Origin: Candidatus Poribacteria bacterium
Lineage (GTDB): Bacteria; Poribacteria; WGA-4E; PCPOR2b
NCBI GenBank assembly: GCA_965218095.1
Contig: OZ244587.1
Coordinates: 1,856,001 to 1,920,000, forward strand
Length of the DNA stretch: 64,000 nucleotides
Direction: 5' to 3'
Position 1 is the stretch's first letter, and each line of letters begins with the position of its first letter. The notes below the pieces were generated by a model that searched no databases, was not told the DNA's origin, and saw only the letters and a list, made by a program, of their open reading frames with translations. A program made the translations under genes and the position numbers. Positions 8,648-32,435 of the stretch are shown piece after piece.

Positions 8648-9437
8648 TTAGGTTCTGTTGACATTTCATCGTAACCAGATAATCGCAGCAACGAAACTCA
8701 GAAACCCCAAATAGCGACCCGCCAACTTATCAAAACGACTGAAGATACGCCTATAGTGCTTGATTTTGTTGATGAAGCATTCCACCCGATGTCTCTCTCG
8801 GTACAGATGCGTATCATAGTCTCGTGACTCACGGCGGTTGATACGGGGACGAATCACTAGCTCTGCACCCATACGGGTTATCAACTGCACCAATGAATCC
8901 GCGTCATACGCTGAGTCGGCTATCACATACTCACTGCTATACCCTTCTGCACAAGTCATGGCGTGGCGTTGTCTAGCCGTCAGCGCAAAACGTAATGGAT
9001 TGCCTAAGCCATCAACCGTGATGTGAATTTTGGTTGAAAATCCACCCGCATTACGTCCGAGTGCCTGTGAGGCTTGACCGCCACTTGTTTTCAAACCCCC
9101 TGCAGCACAGGGGTGAGCGCGGCAGATGGTACTGTCACCATATCTGGGTCGTTGACAAAGTGTTGATGCAGCCGTTGGAAGATGCCTCTATCGCACCAGC
9201 AAGCAAATCGTTTATAGACGCTGTTCCAACTGCCGTACTCTTTTGGTAGGAGTCGCCATTGACTACCACTACGAGTTATCCAAAGCACTGCTTGGACAAA
9301 ACGTTTTAAGTTCGCTTGCTGTCCGGTGTAGACATCGGAACAGGTTTGCAGGAATGCTGCTATTTTTGACCATTGATTATCGGATAAGGTAAGTGTTGAC
9401 ATATCGTTATTATGCCATAAATGTCAACACGTCCTAT
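8648..9437 (-). mobile_element. Second, diverged IS5-family element with split transposase (9091-9402 and 8666-9094)
   Basis: Same TIR at 8651 and variant AAATGTCAACACGTCC at about 9419-9434; [24 protein letters not shown]; small internal deletions. Confidence 0.9.
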
Positions 9438-9514
9438 ACAAATGAGCCGCTCCGAAAGCCAGTGGGCGTGAATTTCCTTGAGTAAATTCCTTTCTGGCTT
9501 GGTTTTCTGCGTCC

Positions 9515-10290
9515 TTATTCAAACGTCGCTGGTCGCAGTTGCGCGGACATCCCACCATCCACATAGAGAACTTGGCCAGTCACAAACGTGGCCTCGTCGC
9601 TGGCGAAATAGAGGATTGCACTGGCAATGTCCGCCGGTTCACCCAATCGCTCCAGGGGCACCATTTACACGCTTGTGCGATTTTCTCTTCGCTTCCGATA
9701 ACAGATGACCAAGCTGGCGTGATAATCGATACGGGCCCAACCGCGTTGATCCTTATATTCCACGGGGCAAGGTCGAGGGCCATCGCCCGCGTCGCCGCCT
9801 CTAAGCCACCCTTGCTGGCGTCGTAGGCAACCATCTTGCGGTGGGCTTGGCTCGCAGCCACACTGCTGATGTTGACGATGGCGCCAGGCTTTTCCTGTTC
9901 CACCATCAGCCACGCTGCCTGCTGAGAACACATAAACATGCTTTTGAGGTTGTTCGCCAACACCGTATCCCAAAATTCCTCCGTCATGTCCAAGAAGTGG
10001 GCTACGGGTGTGCTCCAGGCCGCGTTGTTTACCAAGATGTCCACCGTGCCGAATACTGCCTGTGTCTTTTCGAAAAGTTGAGTCACTTCGTCCGACAGGC
10101 TCACGTCTGCGAGCACCGCCAGCACCCGACTGCCGAGTGCCTGCAGCGATTGTTCGGCTTCACCTAACGTGGCCTCATCGCGATCATTAACGACAACTGT
10201 CGCACCCTCTTGCGCAAACCGCTCGGCGATTCCACGGCCAATGCCCTGCCCCGATCCGGTTACGATGGCAACTTTGTCTTTCAAGCACAT
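9515..10290 (-). pseudogene. SDR-family (FabG-like) oxidoreductase, frameshifted near 9665
   Basis: TGSGQGIG, LVNNA, YDASK. The C-terminus [20 protein letters not shown] lies in another frame ending TAA at 9515. Confidence 0.85.
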
Positions 10291-10329
10291 GATTCTTTTC
10301 CTCTGACTTTGAGCTTGTTGTGAATATGG

Positions 10330-11649
10330 CTAATCTAGCTGGAAGAATGTGCCTGCAATATGGCGCACGACCGCGTATTCCGGCACGGGCTCATCTCCGT
10401 CCTTGCTCGTGAAGTAATACGCCACAAAGAAACGTCCGTTCTCCAGCTCTGTCATGACCGGGTAGCCGCAATCCCAGGTGTAGGCGTCACCACGTAAAAC
10501 AAACTCGTCACTCCAGGTCTCTCCCAGATCGTCGCTGACCACGCCGAGAATACCCCGGCCGCCTCTCGCAGGATACTCGCGCCGGGCGAAAACGATGATA
10601 ATCCGCCCGTCCCGGGTCACCCGTGCACAGGGAGATCGATAGCGGGGACCGCTGCGATCACCGGGGGCGTGATCCGGTTCGGGGCCGGTCAGGGGACAAG
10701 CGTAAGTGCCAGGACTGATGATGGGGCGCGGTGCCGACCAGTTCATTCCTTCGTCTTCGGAGAACACCACATAGGGATGGTTTTCGGGCATGCGGTGCAT
10801 GCTGCAAAGCAGCCGCCCATCGGGAAGGCGGTGCACCCCCGAATAGGTATAGCCATGACTATGATCTGGCGTCGCGCCGTGGGCGATCTCGCTGACAAAC
10901 TCTCAAGAAAGACCATTATCATAACTGGCATAGAAACAGGTAACGTTGCGATTATTGGTGGTACCAACGATGCCGAGAACACCGTTGTCAAGGTGCACAT
11001 GGCCGAGGTTGACGGTAAGGAACCCGCCCTCGGGTGCCCAGCTTGGCCCATCAATAAGCGTAGCGTGACTCTCCCAGGTGCGACCCCGATCTCTGCTCCG
11101 CAAACAAAATGCAGGCATGAAATAAGACTTCCGCCGACCGAGGTGAAAGGTCTTGTCCGGGTCGAGGCTGGGGTGGTCGTCAATGTCGCAGCCACCTAAG
11201 GGCCATTTGAGGTGCTCCCCCGCTGGACTGAAGTGCATAATGGCATCCGGATCCGAAAGATTGATCTGTTCGCGCTCTCCTGGGTCTACCGGCTGCAGCC
11301 AATCTAGAATTTCCCCTAGCGGCCTGTCGTTGTTCCAGATCCAGTGCTTCTCACTCTCAGGCCACGTTTTCCCATTGTCGAAAGAGCGATTGATCATGAT
11401 GCCTGATGTCTGCCCATACGGCATTTGCGAAAAATTATGCGCACCGATTGCCTGCCAGTCGGGCGTCTGGTAGTCTATCGTCTTCACCCGGTGCGCCACG
11501 GCGATCTCGCCATCGTCGAAGTTCCAGATGCCCCCTCGGTTGGGGTGGCCGGCATACGTGTTCTCATCGTAGAAGACGCAAACGTGCTGGACATCGTGCA
11601 CCTGAACTTTCTTTGCGCCAACTCTTTTTCTCGAAACGTTATGTGCCAT
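10330..11649 (-). pseudogene. Asp-box/BNR (sialidase-like) protein, paralog A, with one in-frame TGA at 10903
   Basis: SFDNGKTW, SRDRGRTW, SEDEGMNW, SDDLGETW; one reading frame interrupted only at SYDNGLS*. Confidence 0.85.
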
Positions 11650-21833: not shown

Positions 21834-23756
21834 TTAGGCATTCCGAAAATCAAGCATTGCTTGCCGATACGCCTCCGGCACCCCGATATCAAAGCGCCTC
21901 CCTTTGACGAGGTAACCAGAGAACTGATCTTCTTTCCGCAACTTATCCAGACAAGAGGTCAACTGAAACTCGCCGTGCTCGCGAAAATTATGGGTGATGT
22001 TTTCTTCCAGGTAGTCAAAGATCTGCGGCGTCAAAACATACATACCAAACACAGTGAGGAAATGATCTGCGTCCATCCCATCCACATGAAGATGCTGTCG
22101 GGCATACTCTGCATCGGGCTTTTCGTAGAACTCTGTTACTGAAAGGATCGAGTCCGGCTCCTGCCAGGCGCCGGTCACACAACCGAAGTGGTGAAGTTTA
22201 TCTACATGTGTGACCTTCAACCCGACTACGCTATGCCCGACACGATCATAGATATCCAGCAGTTGCCTTGTGCATGAAATCTCATTATCGGACGCATAGA
22301 GGTGGTCTCCCAGCATGAGCAGAAACGGTTCACCATTTACCCATTTTTGCGCACAAAAGACAGCGTGTCCGAATCCATCCTGAACGTCTTGTGTGACAAA
22401 CGAAATGCGACATCCCAAGTTCATCAGGTGCCGGCAATATTCTTGATCTTCCTTCGACAGTTTGTTGAAATTCTCGATTGCCGGCGGCGTCTTGAAGAAC
22501 TCTTCGAAGAGTTCCCGATCCCTGCTTTGCACAACAAGGCAGACCTCTTCAATTCCAGCATTGATTGCTTCTTCGACGATTGCCATAATGACGGGCTTGG
22601 GTCTACCGTCTCGGTCAATGATAGGGAAAAGCTCCTTCTTGATTGCCTTCGATGCGGGAAATAAACGAGTACCAAACCCCGCAGCCGGGATAACCGCTTT
22701 TCGCACACGCCGTCCCGCCTGAATGACCAGCTTTAAGCAAGACATCTTCAGGTCTCGCTCTATGATTTCGATGACCTTCTGCTGGCTCTCCTCATCTTTA
22801 ACGATAAATTGCGCGGAGCCATCTCCCTGCGATCCAACCCCTTTCCCGCCTAATATGTACGGCTGAATCAGCGCGTAGTTGAGGACTTTGTGAAGCACGG
22901 GGGCAGTCAACTGCAACGGACAGGCAGGTTGAAGGTGCGTATCGAATTCCGCCTGTGCCTTTTTCATCAATTCTCCAACGCTGGCTGCATCCCCTTGGTG
23001 CAACGCTTCGTGTGCTTCGTGGGTTATATTCGCACTGATTGGGCCCAGATATTTCTGGACGTTCCTTTGCATCTTGTTCTCAGCAAAGGGATAACAGTGG
23101 TTCAGTTGATTCAGTATCTCCCGCGTATCCTTACCCGCACCCAGATCGACGATAACGAAATGCAGGTCTTTCGGCACGTTGATCTCTTCGACATCGATCC
23201 GGTCCCCGTCAAAGGTCATCATGATAGGGCGACTCCCATACGCGCAGCCTTGATCCATCCGACCACAACGGGAAGGCGTAGTGATCTCGCCGATGTAGGC
23301 ATACTCCATTTCACCACGGACGGTCATTTTCAGGTCATAAACGCGGTTGAACCCGCGCGCAACAAGAACACAGATCGCCGCGCTTGATGAGAGGCCCTTC
23401 TTAACGGGAAGGTCGGTGAGGTAATTATCGATCTCCAGACCATGCACATGGTAGTGCATCAGAATTTGGTAGGCGACACCAGCGGCATAACTGAAAAAGC
23501 CCCCCTTTTCTGCTTCGGCAAGCAGCGTGTCACTTTCCATGGGCAATTCAAATGGTCCCTCGCGTGTGCCGTCACTCAGTGTGGTACGTAAAATCAGCTT
23601 GGTTGGATGAGGCTGCACTTCGGCATAAAGCCCTTGATTGGTGCCGGTGATGATTGTGTACCCTTTTTCTAAATCGGCGTTGGTACGACGATAGCCGCCG
23701 GCCCAATCGCTATGCTCACCAAAGAGACAGATACGTCCGGGCACAAAAATCCTCAT
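21834..23756 (-). CDS. GHMP (galactokinase-like) kinase fused to a GalU-like sugar-1-phosphate nucleotidyltransferase
   Basis: PGRICLFGEHSDW, PVKKGLSSSAA, GSQGDG; then KAVIPAAGFGTRLFPASK, DGFGHAV, EKP, RFDIG. Confidence 0.9.
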   Translation of the reverse strand: MRIFVPGRICLFGEHSDWAGGYRRTNADLEKGYTIITGTNQGLYAEVQPHPTKLILRTTLSDGTREGPFELPMESDTLLAEAEKGGFFSYAAGVAYQILMHYHVHGLEIDNYLTDLPVKKGLSSSAAICVLVARGFNRVYDLKMTVRGEMEYAYIGEITTPSRCGRMDQGCAYGSRPIMMTFDGDRIDVEEINVPKDLHFVIVDLGAGKDTREILNQLNHCYPFAENKMQRNVQKYLGPISANITHEAHEALHQGDAASVGELMKKAQAEFDTHLQPACPLQLTAPVLHKVLNYALIQPYILGGKGVGSQGDGSAQFIVKDEESQQKVIEIIERDLKMSCLKLVIQAGRRVRKAVIPAAGFGTRLFPASKAIKKELFPIIDRDGRPKPVIMAIVEEAINAGIEEVCLVVQSRDRELFEEFFKTPPAIENFNKLSKEDQEYCRHLMNLGCRISFVTQDVQDGFGHAVFCAQKWVNGEPFLLMLGDHLYASDNEISCTRQLLDIYDRVGHSVVGLKVTHVDKLHHFGCVTGAWQEPDSILSVTEFYEKPDAEYARQHLHVDGMDADHFLTVFGMYVLTPQIFDYLEENITHNFREHGEFQLTSCLDKLRKEDQFSGYLVKGRRFDIGVPEAYRQAMLDFRNA

Positions 23757-24001
23757 TATTTTGACTCCAACTTGTGTTATCTTCTCTAGTGTACGATAGG
23801 CTCCCTGACGAGATCTGATTTGAAAGAGATTTGAGAAAATCGATACAATCACGCAGAAATCAGGCTTCTCATGGGGAATTTCTAGAGGCTCTAAAAATCC
23901 GTGTCCTCTCTCAAAGAATATGGTATAACACCGTCATTATACGGATTGGAACACAAAATACAAGAACGAAATCCATGAAAGAAACGAAAGGAGAAAGTAC
24001 C

Positions 24002-24620: not shown

Positions 24621-24678
24621 GCATTGTAGATTTTTTTTGTTGTAGACCGGGGCGACGGTGGGAGTGAGGGAGGCAATT

Positions 24679-24797
24679 GTCTGAATCGCGGATTGTTGCA
24701 GATTTATGGATTTCGCGAATTAAGGCTTTCGCCGGTACAGGTTTTAATCCGCGAAATCCGCGAAATCCGCGTTATCCGTTTAATTCGCGATTCTGAT
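24679..24797. repeat. Intergenic palindromic repeat with AATCCGCG units; related half-copy near 28932
   Basis: TCTGAATCGCGGATT ... AATCCGCGAAATCCGCGAAATCCGCG ... AATTCGCGATTC; GTCTGAATCACGGATT at about 28932. Confidence 0.6.
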
Positions 24798-24820
24798 AAG
24801 GGAATACCGACAAACCACCA

Positions 24821-27800
24821 TCAAAACTGGACGCCCGCAAAGAATCCGGGCCAAACACAAATGGTTACATCGACATCGTCCGGTCGGACCACGTGGCCGA
24901 ATCCGTATCCAAAATCCGAAGTGTCCTGTCTATCTGAGACGAGGAGGTTGAGCGAAATCCCACCAAAGACACTAAACCACTTGTGCTGTTCCCAGCCGAC
25001 TGCGAAGCGTAGTTTGTTCAAGAGGCTGTGTTCATCCTCCCACCAGTCATCCCAATCCCAATCATCGGTATAAAGCACCGGGCGAATCGTGGCATCAACG
25101 TTGAGAAAAAGTCGCTTACCGAGTGGAATATGCCCACCCATACCAAACCCCCACGACCATCTGCCCAAATCGCCGTGTGGATAACTGCCGACCACGAACA
25201 GGCTATAAACGTGTCGGCTACCGAGACGAATCCCAAGGTTTGCAACCTCCGTATCGCTACCCCACAATTGCAGGTGCAGTGGATTGTCCCTAACAAAGCT
25301 GATTAATCCGATCGGGATGCCGGACATCCGTCTGGAGACGTTGAGAAGCCCTACCTGCGACGTTCCCACATGTCCAGCGATATTGAGAAGTCCAATCTGT
25401 GTCCCAATCCCACCGGGCGCAATATTGACCATGCTAATCTGTGTGCCGGCAGTCGAGATGCCCGCGTTTTGGTGCCAGCCAAGCGCGATATTGCTGATTA
25501 GGCTGAGTTGCATCCCCTCCAAATGCCCGGTAATGTTACCGCCGACTGCGGTTTGTAGACTTCGACCTTGCACATTCCCTCCGACGAAGTTCAGTCCGCC
25601 GGCTGCCTGCCAGCCGCGAAGGTCGCGGGCGACGAGATTACCCCCGACTGCGGCTTGAACTCCCCGCGCACCTCCACCGACCACATTGCCGCCTCCTACC
25701 ACTTGGAAGCCGTCAAGGTTGCCGCCGCTAACGTTGAGACCCACCGAGGCTTGGAAACCCTCCACGTTTCTGCCGGCGATGTTGGCACCGATTGCGGCTT
25801 GTAGACCGCGACTTAGCACATTCTCTCCGACGAGGTTTAGTCCGTAGGCGATCTGCAAACCCTGAAAGTTGCGCGCTGCAAAATTACCCCCGATAGCGGC
25901 TTGAATGCCTCGCACACTTCCACCGGCAGCATTGACCCCTACTGCCGCTTGAAAGCCATCAAGGTCGCCGCCGATGGCATTGAGACCACCCGAGGCTTGG
26001 AAACCCTCCACGTTTCTGCCGACAGTGTTGAACCCGGTTGAGACTTGAAAACCATCTACATTTCCACCGACGATATTGCCCACCCCAGCAAATTGCGCGC
26101 CCCGCGCTTCAAGGCCCTTCATGTTCAAAACCCCTCCCAATTCGATGCCATCAAGTTTCGTATGATAGCCCGCAATGATGTTGAGGGAAAGGTTCGTTGT
26201 GACATTGCGGTTGAGGGCACGAACTCCGACAGTGCTTATCCACGGAATCAGTGAAATCGTCACAGGCAGATGCAAATCGCTATCTTTTGCGGTTCGCGGC
26301 ACAACACCACCATCCTTCTCTAAAGGGGAGAAGGGTTCTAAGTCGCGGGTGGGTTGAGGTGGAGGAACCTGGGTAATTCGGGGGGGCAATCCCTCATTGT
26401 TGATTACCGGCGGATCAATCCCTTGGTGGTTCAGCAGTGAGATATATTTCCCGTTATAAAAAACACGGGGTGTAATCTGCTGTGGGTAGCGTAGCTCATC
26501 GGACAGGTGGGAATGCCATTCCTCGATGCCGCGTGTCACATAATCCAACAGCCCCAACACCGTGACGGTCCCATCGGGGCTCGCTGCGCCCCGGTCTTGA
26601 TAGTCACCGCTCAACCCTTTGAGCAGGAAGTAGGTGAACAGCCCATGTTTCAGTCGCGGAACTTCAGGCGCCCACTGGTTGCTATCACACGCAGTGAAGA
26701 TGATGTTACTCTCTTCACTATAACGTGACAACGCCGCAACAAAGTGCTCCTTCGGTGCTACCCGACACGCATCGACGATGACAAAACGGTGTTTCGCGTT
26801 TGCGCGATTGAGAATCGCAAACAGATTTTCGAGACTCAGTCCACTGTCCACGAGTGGATCGGTGACATCCATCGGCAGAAAGTAACCTGTTCCATCGACA
26901 TCCTCTCCATGCCCGGAGAGATAAACGGTCAGCAGATCTACCGCTTCAAGCTGAGCGTGTCGTTGGAGCTGCTCAATCACATTCGCCTTCGTCGGCTGAA
27001 TCAGGCTATCGGGTGTCATCAACGTCACATTGACGCCTGCGTCTTGGAACACCTGCGCGACCGCTTTGGCATCATCAGCGGCATACTTGAGCGACTGGAA
27101 GGGGGACGGATAGGCATCCACACCGATAACAACCGCCCAATGTCGCATATTGACACCGCTCGCAGCCCCCAGCTGGAAATTACCACCACCGGCAAGAGCC
27201 AACGCCCGCTGACTCACCTCTATCGTCTGCCCTTTTATCGTCGTGAGGGTTAATGTTTTCTCCTGCTCCACCATCAAGTCGGTAGGGAGAAACGTCTCAT
27301 CGAAGCGGTTTTCTGGGCCCTCAAGGACAGGTTGCCACGCCAGATTCCACTGTTTGTGGTCGTTCTGGACGTGCTGAACGAGTTGTCGGTACGTCAGTTT
27401 GTCGTGCCGTTGCGCCCCAATCGCCTGATTTGCAGGACTTAGCAAGTGGGAGAACATCCGCCGATAGAGGGAATAGGTCATCGCGCTGACAGGTAGATAG
27501 GTTTTGCCAATCGGGATGCGTAGTTCGTGAACGACTTGATTGTAGGCAGCAGCCGCCAGCAGTAGTGCAAAATCAGCGGATTCATCTAAGATGTCCTCCG
27601 TATGGCTTACAGTCTGGGTAGGTTGAACGTTTGCCGTTGGGGTATCCGTCACCGGCGTGCCTTTGGGTCGTCCCAGACGAATCTCTCGGAGTATATCGCC
27701 GGAGTAGCATGTGTCGATAATGCAGGAAACCTCCCGCGTCGGAAGCTCTTGGAGTAAGATGTTGAGTTCATCATCCAGCAGGTACGTCTTTGGCGATGCC

Positions 27801-28225
27801 AGATTTGCGTCCACAGGCAATAGGGCTTCGTCGTTCCTATCCGGATATCGCCCCTTCGCTTCATCGCCCGGAAAAGTTCCGAGTTTGTCAATAATCTGCG
27901 TCCCGTGTCCGCTAAAATAGAAAAGCAGGCTATCAGAAGGGGTCAGGCGTCGGCTGAGTTCTCGAAATTTACGCTGAATCTGCGCCTTATTCGGATTGGT
28001 CAGGATGTGCATCTGCGTCTGTGTGACGCCGTGCGTAGAGAGGACCGCTTCCATCAGCTTCAAGTCGTTTGGCGGAGCGTCAAGCTGCAAGTTTGGATTT
28101 GCATAGTCCCAAACACCCACCAGGATGGCGTGTTGCTCGGCGTGGGCAAACTGTGAAAACATCACGAAAAGACTAAAGACCGGAAGCACCCATCGAATCG
28201 TTGACCCCAAGCTATTTTGAGACAT
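24821..28225 (-). CDS. Exported protein: two peptidase C14 (caspase-like) domains, a GxQ/N repeat stalk (LA_2272-like) and a C-terminal outer-membrane beta-barrel
   Basis: Signal peptide ending AHA; FSGHG...IIDTCYSG and LSGHG...IVDACR dyads; about 16-aa GxQxxxGxN repeats; amphipathic strands ending GFFAGVQF. Confidence 0.88.
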   Translation of the reverse strand: MSQNSLGSTIRWVLPVFSLFVMFSQFAHAEQHAILVGVWDYANPNLQLDAPPNDLKLMEAVLSTHGVTQTQMHILTNPNKAQIQRKFRELSRRLTPSDSLLFYFSGHGTQIIDKLGTFPGDEAKGRYPDRNDEALLPVDANLASPKTYLLDDELNILLQELPTREVSCIIDTCYSGDILREIRLGRPKGTPVTDTPTANVQPTQTVSHTEDILDESADFALLLAAAAYNQVVHELRIPIGKTYLPVSAMTYSLYRRMFSHLLSPANQAIGAQRHDKLTYRQLVQHVQNDHKQWNLAWQPVLEGPENRFDETFLPTDLMVEQEKTLTLTTIKGQTIEVSQRALALAGGGNFQLGAASGVNMRHWAVVIGVDAYPSPFQSLKYAADDAKAVAQVFQDAGVNVTLMTPDSLIQPTKANVIEQLQRHAQLEAVDLLTVYLSGHGEDVDGTGYFLPMDVTDPLVDSGLSLENLFAILNRANAKHRFVIVDACRVAPKEHFVAALSRYSEESNIIFTACDSNQWAPEVPRLKHGLFTYFLLKGLSGDYQDRGAASPDGTVTVLGLLDYVTRGIEEWHSHLSDELRYPQQITPRVFYNGKYISLLNHQGIDPPVINNEGLPPRITQVPPPQPTRDLEPFSPLEKDGGVVPRTAKDSDLHLPVTISLIPWISTVGVRALNRNVTTNLSLNIIAGYHTKLDGIELGGVLNMKGLEARGAQFAGVGNIVGGNVDGFQVSTGFNTVGRNVEGFQASGGLNAIGGDLDGFQAAVGVNAAGGSVRGIQAAIGGNFAARNFQGLQIAYGLNLVGENVLSRGLQAAIGANIAGRNVEGFQASVGLNVSGGNLDGFQVVGGGNVVGGGARGVQAAVGGNLVARDLRGWQAAGGLNFVGGNVQGRSLQTAVGGNITGHLEGMQLSLISNIALGWHQNAGISTAGTQISMVNIAPGGIGTQIGLLNIAGHVGTSQVGLLNVSRRMSGIPIGLISFVRDNPLHLQLWGSDTEVANLGIRLGSRHVYSLFVVGSYPHGDLGRWSWGFGMGGHIPLGKRLFLNVDATIRPVLYTDDWDWDDWWEDEHSLLNKLRFAVGWEQHKWFSVFGGISLNLLVSDRQDTSDFGYGFGHVVRPDDVDVTICVWPGFFAGVQF

Positions 28226-28889
28226 TGTGCGCTCCTTTCGTAAAATTTTCCAGCAGTTCTAAAAAACGCCGCTGCTCGAGCGATAGCTTCTCCGCCAAGG
28301 CGTCGCGCTCAACGGTGGTAAGCGAACCCAATTTGAGTCGAGATTGGTAGAGTTCGACCAGTTTGACGTGCATCGCGAGGTCTTCGGGATGCATCTTCAA
28401 AAACGTTTCAACCGCTTCGATTGAGGCGGCGAGTTGTCCTGCGTTCGTTGGTTCGGGCACAATGAGAAACTCCAACATCCCCTCCGCTGAGAGGGGCGGG
28501 GGCCCCGTATTTTCACCGCCCTTTCGTGCGCCCCACTCTATCGACAGATTGAGCGGGGAGAAAATCGACACAGCGAACATCAAAATCACCACCGCGCCTG
28601 CCGCCGAAGGCACCCACAACGGTATCCGCATTCCAAACCACTTCCGGATGCGCGTCCAAAATGACGGTTGCTCAAGTGGCGGCACCTGTGGTGCTTTCAT
28701 CGGAAAGTGTCCAGCTCGGACGGCTGCCCCGAGGTCGTGCAGCGATTTTTCTGTCTCTTGCAAAATTGTATGTCTCCGCTCGCATGCTTCACATTTGAGA
28801 AGATGGGCGCGGATGGGTTTCGATGCGCGAGCGGACAAATCTTTATCAATGTAGTGGAGCAGTTTTTTCTGCACACGACTGCATTTCAT
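28212..28889 (-). CDS. Zinc-binding (zf-HC2/ZAS) transmembrane anti-sigma factor
   Basis: MKC...HLLKCEAC (HxxxCxxC), one TM helix, helical C-terminal domain; stop overlaps the caspase gene start. Confidence 0.85.
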   Translation of the reverse strand: MKCSRVQKKLLHYIDKDLSARASKPIRAHLLKCEACERRHTILQETEKSLHDLGAAVRAGHFPMKAPQVPPLEQPSFWTRIRKWFGMRIPLWVPSAAGAVVILMFAVSIFSPLNLSIEWGARKGGENTGPPPLSAEGMLEFLIVPEPTNAGQLAASIEAVETFLKMHPEDLAMHVKLVELYQSRLKLGSLTTVERDALAEKLSLEQRRFLELLENFTKGAHNVSK

Positions 28890-29211
28890 CGGTGTTCAAC
28901 CTCCTTTTATGATGGGCTGTGGGCTATTGTTGTCTGAATCACGGATTAAACAGATGACGCAGATGACACGGATTAAGAACCAACTCTATCGGGTGGTAGG
29001 ACGCGCTGTGTACCCCTTATGGAAGCGCATAGAAGCCGCGGGGGCTGTGTCGCCGTTTTCAAAAACCTGATTTTCCATGAGAAAGAGGCACCCCCGGAAT
29101 AATGAGCACCCCTCAAATCGATAAATCCTTTGCGCCTTTGCGTCCCCCGAAATCGGGATTAAGAAACTCGCGCCCTTGCGTTGAATGCTTGAATTTATGA
29201 TTGAAAATTGC

Positions 29212-31527
29212 TTAAAACGTCATCGTCACACCGAGATAGGGAAAGAACGGCAATTGATGGAATGCCTCCTTTTCGATGGACGCATTGGAGTTCAACTCGC
29301 GGGTGTACTCGCGTCGGTAGGAAAACTCAAGGACGTTCTTGTGGTTATAGACGTTGAACAATTCGAGGAAAACCCCCATCTGCCAACAGTTGAAGATGAA
29401 CGACTTTTTGATGCGGATGTCGAGCCGATGAAACGGGGGCACGCGCAACGAATTGACCTCGCCCAAGATGGGGACATTAGAAACCACTATCACCTCACCG
29501 TATATCGCATCCGTTTTCTGCACCTTACGCTCCTCGAAGTCGATCGTGGGCGTGTACGGATTCCCTGTCGAATAGCGCCATTTTACACCGATCTCCCATG
29601 TGGGCGACAGATTGTAACTTCCCACGAGTGTTGCCACATGCGTCTGATCGAAAGAGTAAAGGTGCATGGGGGCGTCGGGATGTTCGCGCCGCCGCGAGCG
29701 TGAATAGGCGTAACTGAGAAAGCCGAAGAACCGCTTGCCTTGACGATGCCGCAGAAGAACCTCCGCCCCCCGTGCAAACCCTTCGCCCTGATTGAGATAT
29801 TTCGACACGTTATCCGTCATGATGATTTTGTCAAGGTCTTTGTAATAGCCCGCGAATTTCAAGTGGATTGATGGCGAAATCTTCCGCTCGACTTCGAGAA
29901 CGTAGTGCGTAGCAGTACTCGATTTGACATTGGGGTTACCGATGTCGGGCAAAATGTACCGCGGTTGTGGTCCCTGATTGTATTGTCCATACAAGAGGCG
30001 AATTTCTGACCTGTCTGACACCTGAAATTGGAGACTTGCCCGTGGGCCGACCGATAGCTCGTCCGTGGAGTTCAAATAGGTGGGCCGAACCCCAAACGCG
30101 GCGGAGACGAAAGGAACGGGAGTGTATCGGGCTTGCAGATAACTTTCGAGATGCGTAAAACGTCGCGACAAGTCCAGTTTTTCCAACTTATCTTCATCTA
30201 ATTCAACACCTGCAAAGAACGAGAAATCTTCGTCAAACCTGTCAGGGTCGGAGAGGAGACTCGATACGCTCCTGACCCCGCTTGAAAAGAGGACGCCTGA
30301 CTCTAGTTGATACCTCGAATTCAATTTGTAAATCAAGTCCTCACGAAGTTGATACGTCGGCTGGTCGTCTTGAAAGAAAAAATAAGTTGCATCATCCACA
30401 CCGTGTGCGACTCGGGAGAGGTTATAAGACCGGGAGAGTGTCAAATTTGAGGTGAGTCGATCGGTGAGATGGGAGCGAAGATGAATCCCCTGAGCATTGA
30501 ACCCGTTCTTATAAGAATAGTACTCAAGTTCAGCACCTTCCTCAAACTCCGCTTCAATATTGAAGAAGTCGCTCGTGGCAAACGCATTGAAGGTTAGCTG
30601 ATGCTTCTCGCCCAGGTCATAGCTGAACTGCGCCTGATAGTCCCAAAAACGCGGGAATGCCGTATTCGGGCCCAGTTCCTCATCCGCATCCAGATTAATC
30701 AACAACGGCAGCAACAGGTCAAGATAACTCCGCCGCCCTGCAACATACCACGCGCCACGAGCCCCGATTGGCCCTTCCACCATCCCCTCGGAATAGAGCA
30801 TGTTGATATTGAACTTGCCCGCGACTCGCTCCTGATTGCCATGCCGCGAGTGGATGTCAATAACCGCCTGTGCATCCGAGCCAAATTCCGCACCGAACCC
30901 ACCGGCGTAGACGTCTATCCGCTTGATAACCTCGGTACTGATGGTGGAGACGATTCCGAAGAAATGGTATGGATAGCCTATCGGTAAGCGGTCGAAATAA
31001 AAAACGTTATCTTCCGGGGCACCGCCGCGAATGTAAAGCGAACCGTCGAAATCGTTGGCAACAATGACCCCCGGCAACGATGGCAATGCCCGCAACGCAT
31101 CGCCCGCTGTCCCTGGCATCCGCTTGATTTCAAGGCTTTGCAGACTCTCCTGACTCACTGTCGCCGGAAATCGCTCTGCCGTCACAGGCACTTCCTGCAA
31201 CAAAAGAATTCGTTCAAGGTAGATTTCGACTTCCGTGACTTCTCCCGGCTTGACGGTGGCGGTCGTCTGGTCTGCCAAGCGATAGCCTTCTGCTGAAATG
31301 CTGAACGTATACTCACCCGGCCGCAGGTTTTCAAACCGAAATTTGCCTGCCAAATTTGTCACTGTCTCTTGATTGACCTCCCGCAAGCGAACCTGCGCCG
31401 AAGTGATATGGTCACGGCTGCCTTGCCTGTAAACCGTTCCGAAAACCTCGCCCGTTTCACCTGCGAACGAAACAGGAATGACGGACAGATACAAACTTAT
31501 CGTCAATATCAACATGCGGTGTTTCAC
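29212..31527 (-). CDS. TonB-dependent receptor with N-terminal carboxypeptidase-regulatory-like domain
   Basis: Signal peptide, GEVFGTV..GKFRFENLRPGEY, plug LPGV...LYIRGG...IKRIDVYAGGF, NVYN, terminal F. Confidence 0.92.
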   Translation of the reverse strand: MKHRMLILTISLYLSVIPVSFAGETGEVFGTVYRQGSRDHITSAQVRLREVNQETVTNLAGKFRFENLRPGEYTFSISAEGYRLADQTTATVKPGEVTEVEIYLERILLLQEVPVTAERFPATVSQESLQSLEIKRMPGTAGDALRALPSLPGVIVANDFDGSLYIRGGAPEDNVFYFDRLPIGYPYHFFGIVSTISTEVIKRIDVYAGGFGAEFGSDAQAVIDIHSRHGNQERVAGKFNINMLYSEGMVEGPIGARGAWYVAGRRSYLDLLLPLLINLDADEELGPNTAFPRFWDYQAQFSYDLGEKHQLTFNAFATSDFFNIEAEFEEGAELEYYSYKNGFNAQGIHLRSHLTDRLTSNLTLSRSYNLSRVAHGVDDATYFFFQDDQPTYQLREDLIYKLNSRYQLESGVLFSSGVRSVSSLLSDPDRFDEDFSFFAGVELDEDKLEKLDLSRRFTHLESYLQARYTPVPFVSAAFGVRPTYLNSTDELSVGPRASLQFQVSDRSEIRLLYGQYNQGPQPRYILPDIGNPNVKSSTATHYVLEVERKISPSIHLKFAGYYKDLDKIIMTDNVSKYLNQGEGFARGAEVLLRHRQGKRFFGFLSYAYSRSRRREHPDAPMHLYSFDQTHVATLVGSYNLSPTWEIGVKWRYSTGNPYTPTIDFEERKVQKTDAIYGEVIVVSNVPILGEVNSLRVPPFHRLDIRIKKSFIFNCWQMGVFLELFNVYNHKNVLEFSYRREYTRELNSNASIEKEAFHQLPFFPYLGVTMTF

Positions 31528-31557: not shown

Positions 31558-31591
31558 AGAAACCGAGTTTTTTGCCAAAAACTCGGTTTCT
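31558..31591. repeat. Short intergenic palindrome (REP-like)
   Basis: AGAAACCGAGTTTTT-TGCC-AAAAACTCGGTTTCT. Confidence 0.6.
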
Positions 31592-31601
31592 GCGATATGT
31601 A

Positions 31602-32141
31602 CTAATCCCCAAAGAAATAGGACGCCAAGCATGTTGCGAGTTGTCCCCTTGCATGATGGAGACGACTTTTCACCGTCCCCTGCCGGATGCCGAGCCGTTT
31701 GGCAATCTTTTTTTCCGGGAGTTCCTCGACGTAGAATAGCCAGACCACCTGTTGATGAATAAGGGGAAGTTCCGAGATGGCGTCCCGAACGACCGTCAAC
31801 TTTTCTTGAAAGAGGACGTGTGTCTCCGGTGCGCGGGAATCTGATGGTATCTGCCCAGCCTCAAAATTTTCGTCGTCAAGGCTACCGAGTGCATGTCTGG
31901 CAGCAGTGCCTTGACGACGCGACCAGTTCCGAACCACATTTTTGGCAATCTCGTGTAGCCACGCCAGAAACGCCGCTTCGGATCTGTCCCTGACCGTCTC
32001 GCGGTTTTGGTGCGCAATCAGAGCGACTTCGTTGTTGATATCCCTCCGGTCTTCCGGTTGGCTGTGTGTGTAGTAGACGCGACACAGTTCATCAACGAAT
32101 TGTGCAATCTGGGCGTGATATTTTCCGATATCCCTTGCCAC
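31602..32141 (-). CDS. ECF-type RNA polymerase sigma-70 factor
   Basis: FLAWLHEIAKN (region 2); ELP..QQVVWL...IAKRLGIRQGTVKSRLHHAR (region 4). Confidence 0.9.
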   Translation of the reverse strand: MARDIGKYHAQIAQFVDELCRVYYTHSQPEDRRDINNEVALIAHQNRETVRDRSEAAFLAWLHEIAKNVVRNWSRRQGTAARHALGSLDDENFEAGQIPSDSRAPETHVLFQEKLTVVRDAISELPLIHQQVVWLFYVEELPEKKIAKRLGIRQGTVKSRLHHARGQLATCLASYFFGD

Positions 32142-32327: not shown

Positions 32328-32435
32328 CTAGGTTCTGTTGACATTTCATTGGGTAAGGTTATTGGCATCATTCTTCTATTATGCCACAACCTTATATATG
32401 CCACAACCTTATACTCAAATGTCAACAGAACCTAG
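32328..32435 (-). mobile_element. MITE: internal deletion derivative of the resident IS5
   Basis: Both TIRs with CTAG; interior is the IS 5' end with a 17-bp tandem duplication TATGCCACAACCTTATA. Confidence 0.9.

Follow-up and report, generated by a model that had tools for sequence, protein, structure and literature searches.

The subject of this analysis is one gene on the reverse strand of a 64,000-nucleotide stretch from a Candidatus Poribacteria bacterium (assembly GCA_965218095.1, contig OZ244587.1, positions 1,856,001 to 1,920,000; hereafter the window). It encodes an exported protein of 1134 amino acids (aa) with two different caspase domains, followed by a predicted beta-solenoid and a predicted C-terminal barrel, and it is the last gene of a cassette that also encodes a sigma factor of the extracytoplasmic function (ECF) type, a TonB-type receptor and an anti-sigma factor. 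We propose, at a probability of roughly 0.4, that the product is an outer-membrane-anchored, periplasmic tandem protease that acts by regulated proteolysis within an ECF envelope signalling unit, coupling caspase activity to sigma factor release. The tandem-caspase protein is a variant within a large uncharacterised family that combines a caspase, a solenoid of LA_2272-type repeats and a small barrel.

Two caspase domains on a predicted solenoid-barrel anchor

The gene occupies 24821-28225 (-) as a single open reading frame (ORF), preceded by a ribosome binding site (RBS; AAGGAG, 7 nucleotides (nt) 5' of the ATG). Its parts, in the order of translation, are:

28139..28225 (-), residues 1-29: Sec-type signal peptide, read from the sequence, with the cleavage motif AHA↓EQ
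27452..28132 (-), residues about 32-258: caspase domain 1, a metacaspase-like Peptidase_C14 domain (Pfam, PDB sequence matches, conservation)
27905-27907 (-): His107 of domain 1
27707-27709 (-): Cys173 of domain 1
26528..27139 (-), residues 363-566: caspase domain 2, a Peptidase_C14 domain of the type modelled by NCBIfam as EACC1-associated (second Pfam stretch, NCBIfam)
26909-26911 (-): His439 of domain 2
26765-26767 (-): Cys487 of domain 2
26276..26434 (-), residues about 598-650: Pro-rich linker, poorly conserved (sequence, low confidence at the start of the model, variable alignment columns)
25286..26275 (-), residues about 651-980: predicted beta-solenoid, about 17 rungs of 16-residue GxQ..N repeats of the LA_2272 type (periodicity, model)
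24824..25285 (-), residues 981-1134: predicted eight-stranded outer-membrane beta-barrel ending in WPGFFAGVQF (AlphaFold2, Foldseek, VIA-align, DSSP)
24821-24823 (-): stop codon

The whole protein matches Pfam Peptidase_C14 at E 3.7e-36 (125.4 bits) in two stretches, the better of them at residues 32-258. Domain 1 carries the catalytic motifs SGHG (105-108) and DTCYSG (171-176); by sequence it matches the solved metacaspases 7qp0 (E 1.1e-6) and 8a53 (E 2e-6), with whose catalytic motifs its SGHG and D-x-C-x-SG line up, bearing out the initial annotation, which had read a metacaspase-like first domain from these two motifs. Domain 2, the second Pfam stretch, has SGHG at 437-440 and DACR at 485-488 and matches positions 2-207 of the 211 in the NCBIfam model caspase_w_EACC1 (NF047832) at 113.6 bits, under the 140-bit cut-off. 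With that score, and with no EACC1 domain reported, it falls outside the EACC1-associated caspases; these systems are cytoplasmic, whereas the window protein is exported. A sequence search of the PDB gave no match for domain 2. Since the two domains share only 32% identity across 88 residues they are distinct, and the second, different C14 domain of the initial annotation can be retained.

Each domain has the catalytic His and Cys that characterise p20-type C14 peptidases. Among 121 homologues of at least 850 aa, His107 is kept in 118 and Cys173 in 119, the remainder being gaps, and His439 and Cys487 are each kept in all 121, so that at the level of sequence both dyads appear complete, as had been claimed. 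Because all of these homologues are at least 60% identical to the query, this conservation reflects purifying selection in one clade and not deep conservation. Domain 1 retains Asp171, two residues before the Cys, and Asp54, in an N-terminal 'ND' motif, both of which we take to fit an Arg/Lys-specific pocket; together with Asp485 of domain 2, these acidic residues near the active sites hint at a basic P1 residue. Caspase-family enzymes are commonly autoprocessed at the region following the catalytic Cys. Directly after Cys173, the basic stretch LREIRLGRPKG is invariant among 28 aligned orthologues and gives way to a variable segment; a protease of basic specificity might cut there.

Export is suggested by residues 1-29, which read as a basic n-region, a hydrophobic core and the AHA↓EQ motif; A29, E30 and Q31 show no variation across the 28 orthologues, in keeping with the signal peptide noted at the outset. 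The Pro-rich linker of the initial annotation is likewise present, at about 598-650, and so is its region of GxQ..N repeats: between 709 and 871 GxQ returns with a period of 16 residues, and with variations the pattern extends to 941. The number of these repeats differs among orthologues, which are 995 to 1138 aa long. The window gene belongs to the LA_2272 repeat family, its match to LA_2272_repeat (NF047436) reaching 28.2 bits in a genome scan (cut-off 25 bits) and 21.6 bits in the whole-protein scan; 26 of 28 scanned relatives match at E <=0.001, and 18 of the 28 do so at or over the cut-off. The NCBIfam models NF047436 (LA_2272 repeat) and NF047437 (VC2662) name a repeat only, and in the literature, within the accessible parts of the sources, LA_2272 appeared as single mentions in two Leptospira surveys, with no structure or function found.

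The solenoid-barrel module (residues 631-1134) was modelled with AlphaFold2. A model from the single sequence left the barrel unresolved (predicted local distance difference test, pLDDT, 49.7) and yielded weak beta-helix rows only in Foldseek (best E 1.7e-2); it was replaced by a model based on an alignment of 83 sequences (the query, parts of 15 Poribacteria orthologues and 67 short module-only relatives), with a mean pLDDT of 88.1, a predicted template modelling score of 0.65 and values of 80-95 over the solenoid. When the latter model was compared by VIA-align with 48,161 PDB representatives, the solenoid matched best the Marinomonas antifreeze protein 3p4g (Z 21.2, root-mean-square deviation (rmsd) 3.4, 239 residues aligned), and it also matched the two-partner secretion (TPS) domains of HMW1 and EtpA, Ag43b, pertactin, TibA and CsgA (Z about 13.8-17). 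The barrel matched the N-terminal domain of OprF (4rlc; Z 14.3, 126 of 135 aligned) and a designed eight-strand transmembrane barrel (6x9z; Z 14.1, rmsd 1.7, 108 of 120 aligned), as well as OprH, OmpA, PagL and CarO. Foldseek likewise placed 4rlc first (E 3.6e-3), then OmpW, OmpA, OprH, OmpX, NspA and the designed eight-strand barrel, none at E <=0.001; the intimin barrel, at rank 2, had a target template modelling score of just 0.25. DSSP assigns long strands at 984-990, 995-1002, 1006-1015, 1022-1034, 1039-1052, 1067-1081, 1084-1097 and 1120-1133, and in the model the strands, the turns and loops and the terminal aromatic residue are those of the small eight-stranded OmpA/OmpX/OmpW-like barrels. 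By sequence the query barrel itself stays under the threshold of Pfam OMP_b-brl, which is reached by the barrel of one relative (locus L054; 29.5 bits, cut-off 28.7).

The sigma factor cassette and its neighbourhoods

The caspase gene closes a cassette of four genes, all on the reverse strand and ordered ECF sigma factor, TonB-type receptor, anti-sigma factor and caspase. The three upstream genes are:

31602..32141 (-): ECF-type sigma-70 factor of 179 aa, first gene of the cassette (Sigma70_r2 and r4_2; TIGR02937 at 71.2 bits, cut-off 42.9)
29212..31527 (-): TonB-dependent-receptor-like outer-membrane protein of 771 aa (CarboxypepD_reg and Plug domains)
28212..28889 (-): anti-sigma factor of 225 aa (Pfam zf-HC2 at 24 bits, cut-off 22.2)

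In the anti-sigma factor an N-terminal zf-HC2 domain is followed by a single transmembrane helix (about 89-110) and, on the periplasmic side, by a domain of about 115 residues (about 111-225), which is the best-conserved part of the protein in an alignment of 25 sequences. Its stop codon and the caspase start overlap, the caspase ATG (28225) lying 14 nt within the anti-sigma gene, and as read from this arrangement the caspase gene is translationally coupled to the anti-sigma gene. Because 24 aligned upstream regions contain no conserved internal promoter between the receptor and anti-sigma genes, only an RBS, the sigma, receptor, anti-sigma and caspase genes probably form one operon.

Conservation of the cassette was followed by tblastn over 27 related loci. 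The ECF sigma factor is present in 26 and the anti-sigma factor in all 27, abutting or overlapping the caspase start in 26, and in 25 of the 27 Poribacteria loci both lie directly upstream of the caspase gene; the exceptions are L027, where the sequence ends upstream of the anti-sigma gene, and L002, where the anti-sigma match ends well before the caspase start. The receptor is less constant: it stands between the sigma and anti-sigma genes in 22 loci, in three the sigma gene directly precedes the anti-sigma gene with no receptor between them, in one further locus the sole receptor match (25% identity) lies upstream of the sigma gene, and the remaining locus is truncated.

Beyond Poribacteria, metagenome contigs were scanned with an IUPAC DNA pattern for GxQxGxxN-x6-GxQxG[LIVM]xN, and 80 of the 119 matching stretches were taken; all 80 loci hold an ORF matching the hidden Markov model (HMM) of the module. 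Neighbourhoods were examined at the 19 loci whose module protein has 370 aa or more and whose contig extends 1.5 kb or more upstream, among which four bear a caspase (L042, L043, L067 and L031). At L042, L043 and L067, a gene for an ECF sigma factor and then one for a single-pass membrane protein lie directly upstream of the caspase gene, and at L043 the sigma factor and caspase-module protein stand beside a gene with a Fib_succ_major domain. At L031 a TonB-dependent receptor lies upstream, 710 bases from the contig end. Similar genes accompany module proteins at other loci: at L073 (131-3223) an ECF sigma factor and FecR precede a module protein without a Pfam domain of its own, at L084 an ECF sigma gene lies just downstream of the module gene, and L090 and L092 adjoin genes of the TonB system.

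Several further observations were made at these loci. DUF4384 often accompanies Peptidase_C14, and the periplasmic part of the single-pass membrane protein at L042:5560-6378 has a weak DUF4384 match (18 bits, cut-off 27). Five Bacteroidota-like loci (L036, L052, L056, L107 and L108) encode proteins of 501-904 aa that combine LA_2272-type repeats with Pfam DUF3943, one of which adjoins a DUF4421 protein; no link to a sigma factor was seen at these five. One Poribacteria genome has a second cassette of sigma factor, anti-sigma factor and caspase (L024:8001-12618, on the same contig as L023), in which an insert of about 1.4 kb with two transposase-like ORFs (9137-9685 and 9654-10397), presumably IS630-like, interrupts the caspase gene precisely between its two domains, leaving one ORF of 356 aa for domain 1 and another of 713 aa for domain 2. 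The window caspase is closer to those of L001-L017 (68-84% identity) than to those of L018-L026 (58-66%), whereas the window receptor is closer to those of L018-L022 and L026 (65-68%) than to those of L001-L017 (39-42%), a discordance that hints at replacement of the receptor gene or recombination. Downstream of the caspase gene, 21834-23852 (-) encodes a 672-aa fusion of a GHMP/galactokinase-like kinase and a nucleotidyl transferase, which looks like an enzyme of sugar-1-phosphate activation; it is kept in none of the 27 loci and lies outside the cassette.

Contigs from three RNA libraries cover parts of the caspase gene at low depth, with DNA carry-over possible. One from library X11 (219 nt) is identical to window positions 24794-25012, and those from X16 and X21 differ from the gene by about 8-10% and, because of that divergence, are assigned to relatives; such contigs prove neither transcription of the gene nor a habitat, and parts of the operon that no contig covers carry no weight either. 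At four intergenic spots flanking the genes of the cassette (24676-24763, 28926-28979, 31558-31592 and 32346-32396) the summed contig depth rises to about 2500, against about 15 at the neighbouring genes, and many of these contigs continue into dissimilar sequence, which suggests a short repeat dispersed in the window's genome and related ones. The motif TAATCCGTGATTCAGAC occurs twice in the window with at most two mismatches, for a chance expectation of 0.01.

Orientation, mechanism and rival explanations

In canonical outer-membrane barrels the long loops point outwards, the turns on the periplasmic side are short and both termini are periplasmic. Across 88 aligned C-termini of the family, the strand connections have the following lengths in residues:

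Connection 1-2: median 4
Connection 2-3: median 3
Connection 3-4: median 6 (range 4-20)
Connection 4-5: median 4 (range 3-14)
Connection 5-6: median 8 (range 5-19)
Connection 6-7: median 2 (range 2-3)
Connection 7-8: median 21.5 (range 15-42)

As the odd connections are long and variable and the even ones short, the canonical topology would make the N-terminal domains periplasmic; two insertions specific to Poribacteria, at 1054-1059 and 1109-1110, lie in these long loops. The same conclusion is suggested by sibling proteins in which the solenoid-barrel module bears an STN domain; in TonB-dependent transducers and secretins, STN serves as a signalling domain in the periplasm. It is suggested as well by the small size of the barrel, since we know of no secretion route for a passenger of about 950 residues through eight strands. 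On the modelled barrel and these alignments, it is likely that the solenoid and both caspases face the periplasm.

This placement bears directly on the initial annotation, which had described the protein as autotransporter-like and, if surface-displayed in a host-associated bacterium, able to act on host proteins: the barrel would export the solenoid and caspases, which would then attack host or environmental proteins, possibly after self-release. The protein does share with the type Va autotransporters (pertactin, Ag43) a signal peptide, a beta-solenoid like those of autotransporter and TPS passengers (Ag43b, pertactin and TibA match it at Z 13.8-14.9) and a C-terminal barrel that ends in an aromatic residue, here the Phe of the beta-signal GFFAGVQF. 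The Pro-rich linker is moreover a possible release site, and short contigs of a sponge metatranscriptome library overlap the gene. Sec signal peptides and terminal aromatic residues are common to all outer-membrane barrels and hence do not discriminate, and in the traits that do, the protein departs from the type: translocators of type Va have 12 strands and about 250-300 residues, whereas the window barrel is predicted to have eight strands in 154 residues with no pore-filling helical plug segment, residues 626-1134 give no match to Pfam Autotransporter (PF03797) at E <=10, and the enzyme domains are N-terminal of the solenoid and most likely periplasmic. Of the C-terminal features in the initial annotation, the repeat region, the barrel and the final Phe can be kept, and the autotransporter type of barrel cannot; the OprF/OmpA-like fold speaks against calling the protein autotransporter-like. 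The loop pattern and the STN-bearing siblings both argue against surface display, the gene sits in a context of ECF and anti-sigma genes, and it occurs in just one of the 112 genomes of the phylum's largest family. A surface protease is accordingly a distinctly improbable reading. Nothing supports an action on host proteins if the proteases are periplasmic, and the claim of a surface-displayed, host-attacking enzyme should not be carried forward without topology evidence.

With the caspases placed in the periplasm, the proposed mechanism would run as follows. The protein would be exported by Sec, and its eight-stranded barrel would insert into the outer membrane as an anchor, from which the solenoid of about 17 rungs would hang into the periplasm as a rigid stalk of about 80 Å (4.8 Å per rung). 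At the far end, the flexible Pro-rich linker would hold two different Cys-His proteases of the caspase fold, which would thereby be able to meet the periplasmic domain of the inner-membrane anti-sigma factor. The tethered caspases would cut this domain or be held in check by it, so that caspase activity would be coupled to release of the ECF sigma factor. A functional link between the caspase and the ECF pair is somewhat probable, whereas it is doubtful that the anti-sigma factor itself is the substrate or partner; gene order and topology rules are all that the functional claim draws on. A predicted complex of the caspase region (30-630) with the anti-sigma periplasmic domain (111-225), made with alignments, scored 0.00 and 0.00 and weighs neither way.

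A number of points tell against the signalling reading or its parts. Gene adjacency is equally compatible with the caspase gene being a mere target of the sigma factor, and the informative caspase loci outside Poribacteria are only four. No homology to the Poribacteria anti-sigma factor is detectable in the membrane proteins of L042, L043 and L067, an HMM built from 25 anti-sigma sequences having matched no ORF in the 80 metagenome loci, and Pfam finds in the cassette receptor no STN (E <=0.01), the domain expected in classical cell-surface signalling. As to the orientation, the solenoid resembles the autotransporter and TPS passengers Ag43, pertactin, TibA, EtpA and HMW1 (Z 13.8-16.8), and the NCBI family name of the repeat includes the word 'surface'. 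Finally, DSSP gives a ninth strand of five residues at 1109-1113; most of the 88 aligned C-termini have gaps at 1109-1110, as they do at 1054-1059, and the short strand is therefore placed in a variable loop.

The main rival to signalling is an effector of the ECF regulon: under stress the cell would induce a periplasmic protease that turns over envelope proteins or, in self-destruction or defence, breaks them down once the sigma factor is switched on. Since an ECF sigma factor commonly drives transcription of the operon that encodes it, the last gene of the cassette would be co-induced, and two different protease types would broaden the substrate range. Bacterial caspase homologues have, in the accessible parts of two sources, repeatedly been tied to cell death or defence (PMC3501461; bioRxiv 10.1101/2023.06.23.546230). 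The tight translational coupling to the anti-sigma gene and the recurrence of the trio of sigma factor, membrane protein and caspase in other lineages point instead to a stoichiometric partnership; we regard an effector as unlikely, if to be taken seriously. The protein could also be a structural component of the envelope, a solenoid-barrel spacer or tether on which the caspase folds serve as binding modules and not as enzymes, as might be suggested by the frequency of module-only relatives without an enzyme domain and by the varying number of repeats among orthologues. This is hardly credible given that both His/Cys dyads and their flanking motifs are invariant and that the His and Cys motifs are kept in all 42 single-caspase relatives checked.

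The family and its relation to known systems

An exhaustive HMMER search with the module returned 4383 representative clusters at E <=0.001 and 2988 at E <=1e-10. Among the matches listed, the module mostly reaches or nears the C-terminus of proteins of 148-1056 residues, and 73 of 149 representatives are of module-only size (<550 aa). N-terminal domains were scanned in 68 of the 76 listed representatives of at least 550 aa, the last eight being left out: 43 have one N-terminal Peptidase_C14, 17 have STN, FecR_C-like or CarboxypepD_reg (STN in 14 of them), and eight have no Pfam family. The one-caspase form is thus the common one, and the two-caspase form was seen almost only in Poribacteria. 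In this phylum, 34 of 176 genomes have a match at E <=1e-20, unevenly spread over the families (20 of 28 genomes in f1, 7 of 11 in f2, 4 of 8 in f8, 1 of 1 in f6 and 1 of 112 in f4), and 26 of the 27 related genome loci bear the label Candidatus Poribacteria. The best 120 relatives of near-equal length span 854-1145 aa, at 60-97% identity. Only one copy of the module is present in the window's own genome. In eight genomes of genus g7 (G040, G044, G045, G046, G049, G050, G052 and G055) there is a module-only paralogue (open frames of 431-451 aa, 47-49% identical to residues 806-1134) that is missing from the window's genome.

Domain 1 seems to have been added at the N-terminus within the Poribacteria lineage, and domain 2 to be the resident caspase of the family. 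The single-caspase relatives match the EACC1-type caspase model, as domain 2 does, and 28 of the 32 representatives with a phmmer match to either domain score higher with domain 2, most of them at just 12-30 bits. One more distant relative, P0211 (36% identity overall), has a truncated gene call that starts just after the domain-1 Cys motif, and its alignment covers what remains of domain 1 together with domain 2, repeats and barrel. In a second large branch of the family, mostly from Bacteroidota in the protein atlas, STN, FecR_C-like and CarboxypepD_reg domains replace the caspase on the solenoid-barrel (P0159, P0181, P0185, P0198, P0213, P0216, P0219, P0228, P0236, P0238, P0244, P0249, P0250 and P0253). 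These proteins resemble TonB-dependent transducers whose plug and 22-strand barrel have been swapped for a solenoid and an eight-strand barrel. To the question raised at the start, whether the architecture might already be common and characterised, the answer is divided: the one-caspase form is common, and no paper was found that characterises it. Searches of the accessible literature turned up nothing on the solenoid-barrel module, on caspases anchored in the envelope or on what they do, and only NCBIfam repeat models name the module.

The p20 region of the metacaspases and orthocaspases (C14B; yeast Mca1, 7qp0; Arabidopsis MC9, 8a53; Microcystis MaOC1) aligns with domain 1, whereas the window protein differs from them in being exported, tethered to the outer membrane and in tandem with a second, different C14 domain, an arrangement for which no characterised metacaspase was found in the literature. 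The cassette recalls FecI/FecR/FecA signalling in joining the genes of an ECF sigma factor, an anti-sigma factor with one transmembrane helix and an outer-membrane protein of the TonB type. Sibling module proteins have STN or FecR_C-like domains, one of them (L073) following an ECF sigma factor and FecR; unlike that system, the window has a receptor that is no STN transducer and an anti-sigma factor of zf-HC2 and not FecR type. Of the known site-1 proteases (DegS, Prc/CtpA, PrsW), all to our knowledge are serine or metallo enzymes and none is a caspase.

Caspase homologues and sigma factors have been found together before. In the accessible part of a 2012 survey by Asplund-Samuelsson et al., sigma-70 genes occur in metacaspase operons of Myxococcus, Anaeromyxobacter, Haliangium, Sorangium, Ralstonia and Fibrobacter (PMC3501461), and L043 likewise pairs an ECF sigma factor with a caspase-module protein; that part of the survey contains no solenoid-barrel anchor, tandem caspase or proposed function. 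In the type III-E system of Craspase, Csx30 and CASP-sigma, and in the type III-B pathway from SAVED-CHAT to PCaspase, the gene of a caspase-fold protease accompanies those of a sigma factor and its inhibitor. As far as the consulted part of the source goes, caspase-fold proteases control sigma factors in the cytoplasm and, in the type III-B system, one protease activates a second, a conceptual precedent for both a cascade and sigma release (bioRxiv 10.1101/2023.06.23.546230). These systems, linked to clustered regularly interspaced short palindromic repeats (CRISPR), are cytoplasmic and built of separate polypeptides, whereas the window protein joins both proteases in one exported chain, and neither CRISPR nor a nucleotide sensor is involved. 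A more far-reaching proposal, to which we give a slim chance, is that caspase-solenoid-barrel proteins are the missing protease and sensor of a widespread class of ECF pathways, cutting the co-encoded anti-sigma factor upon an envelope or receptor signal, with domains 1 and 2 acting in series as a two-step cascade in Poribacteria.

Bacterial caspase homologues are numerous, and the few with a known role are cytoplasmic. Here, a large unnamed family, anchored by a small barrel that bears a solenoid stalk, brings caspases into the cell envelope, and its caspase-module genes recur beside ECF sigma/anti-sigma pairs in at least two unrelated contig groups. If the anti-sigma factor is cleaved, these proteins would add a new protease class to regulated anti-sigma proteolysis, and caspase cascades could be studied in a simple bacterial model; as effectors, on the other hand, they would be candidates for envelope-directed self-destruction. 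Should the caspases cut the anti-sigma factor upon such a signal, transmembrane signalling in the bacterial envelope would be gated by caspases. The family offers a testable tie between caspases and ECF signalling in this compartment.

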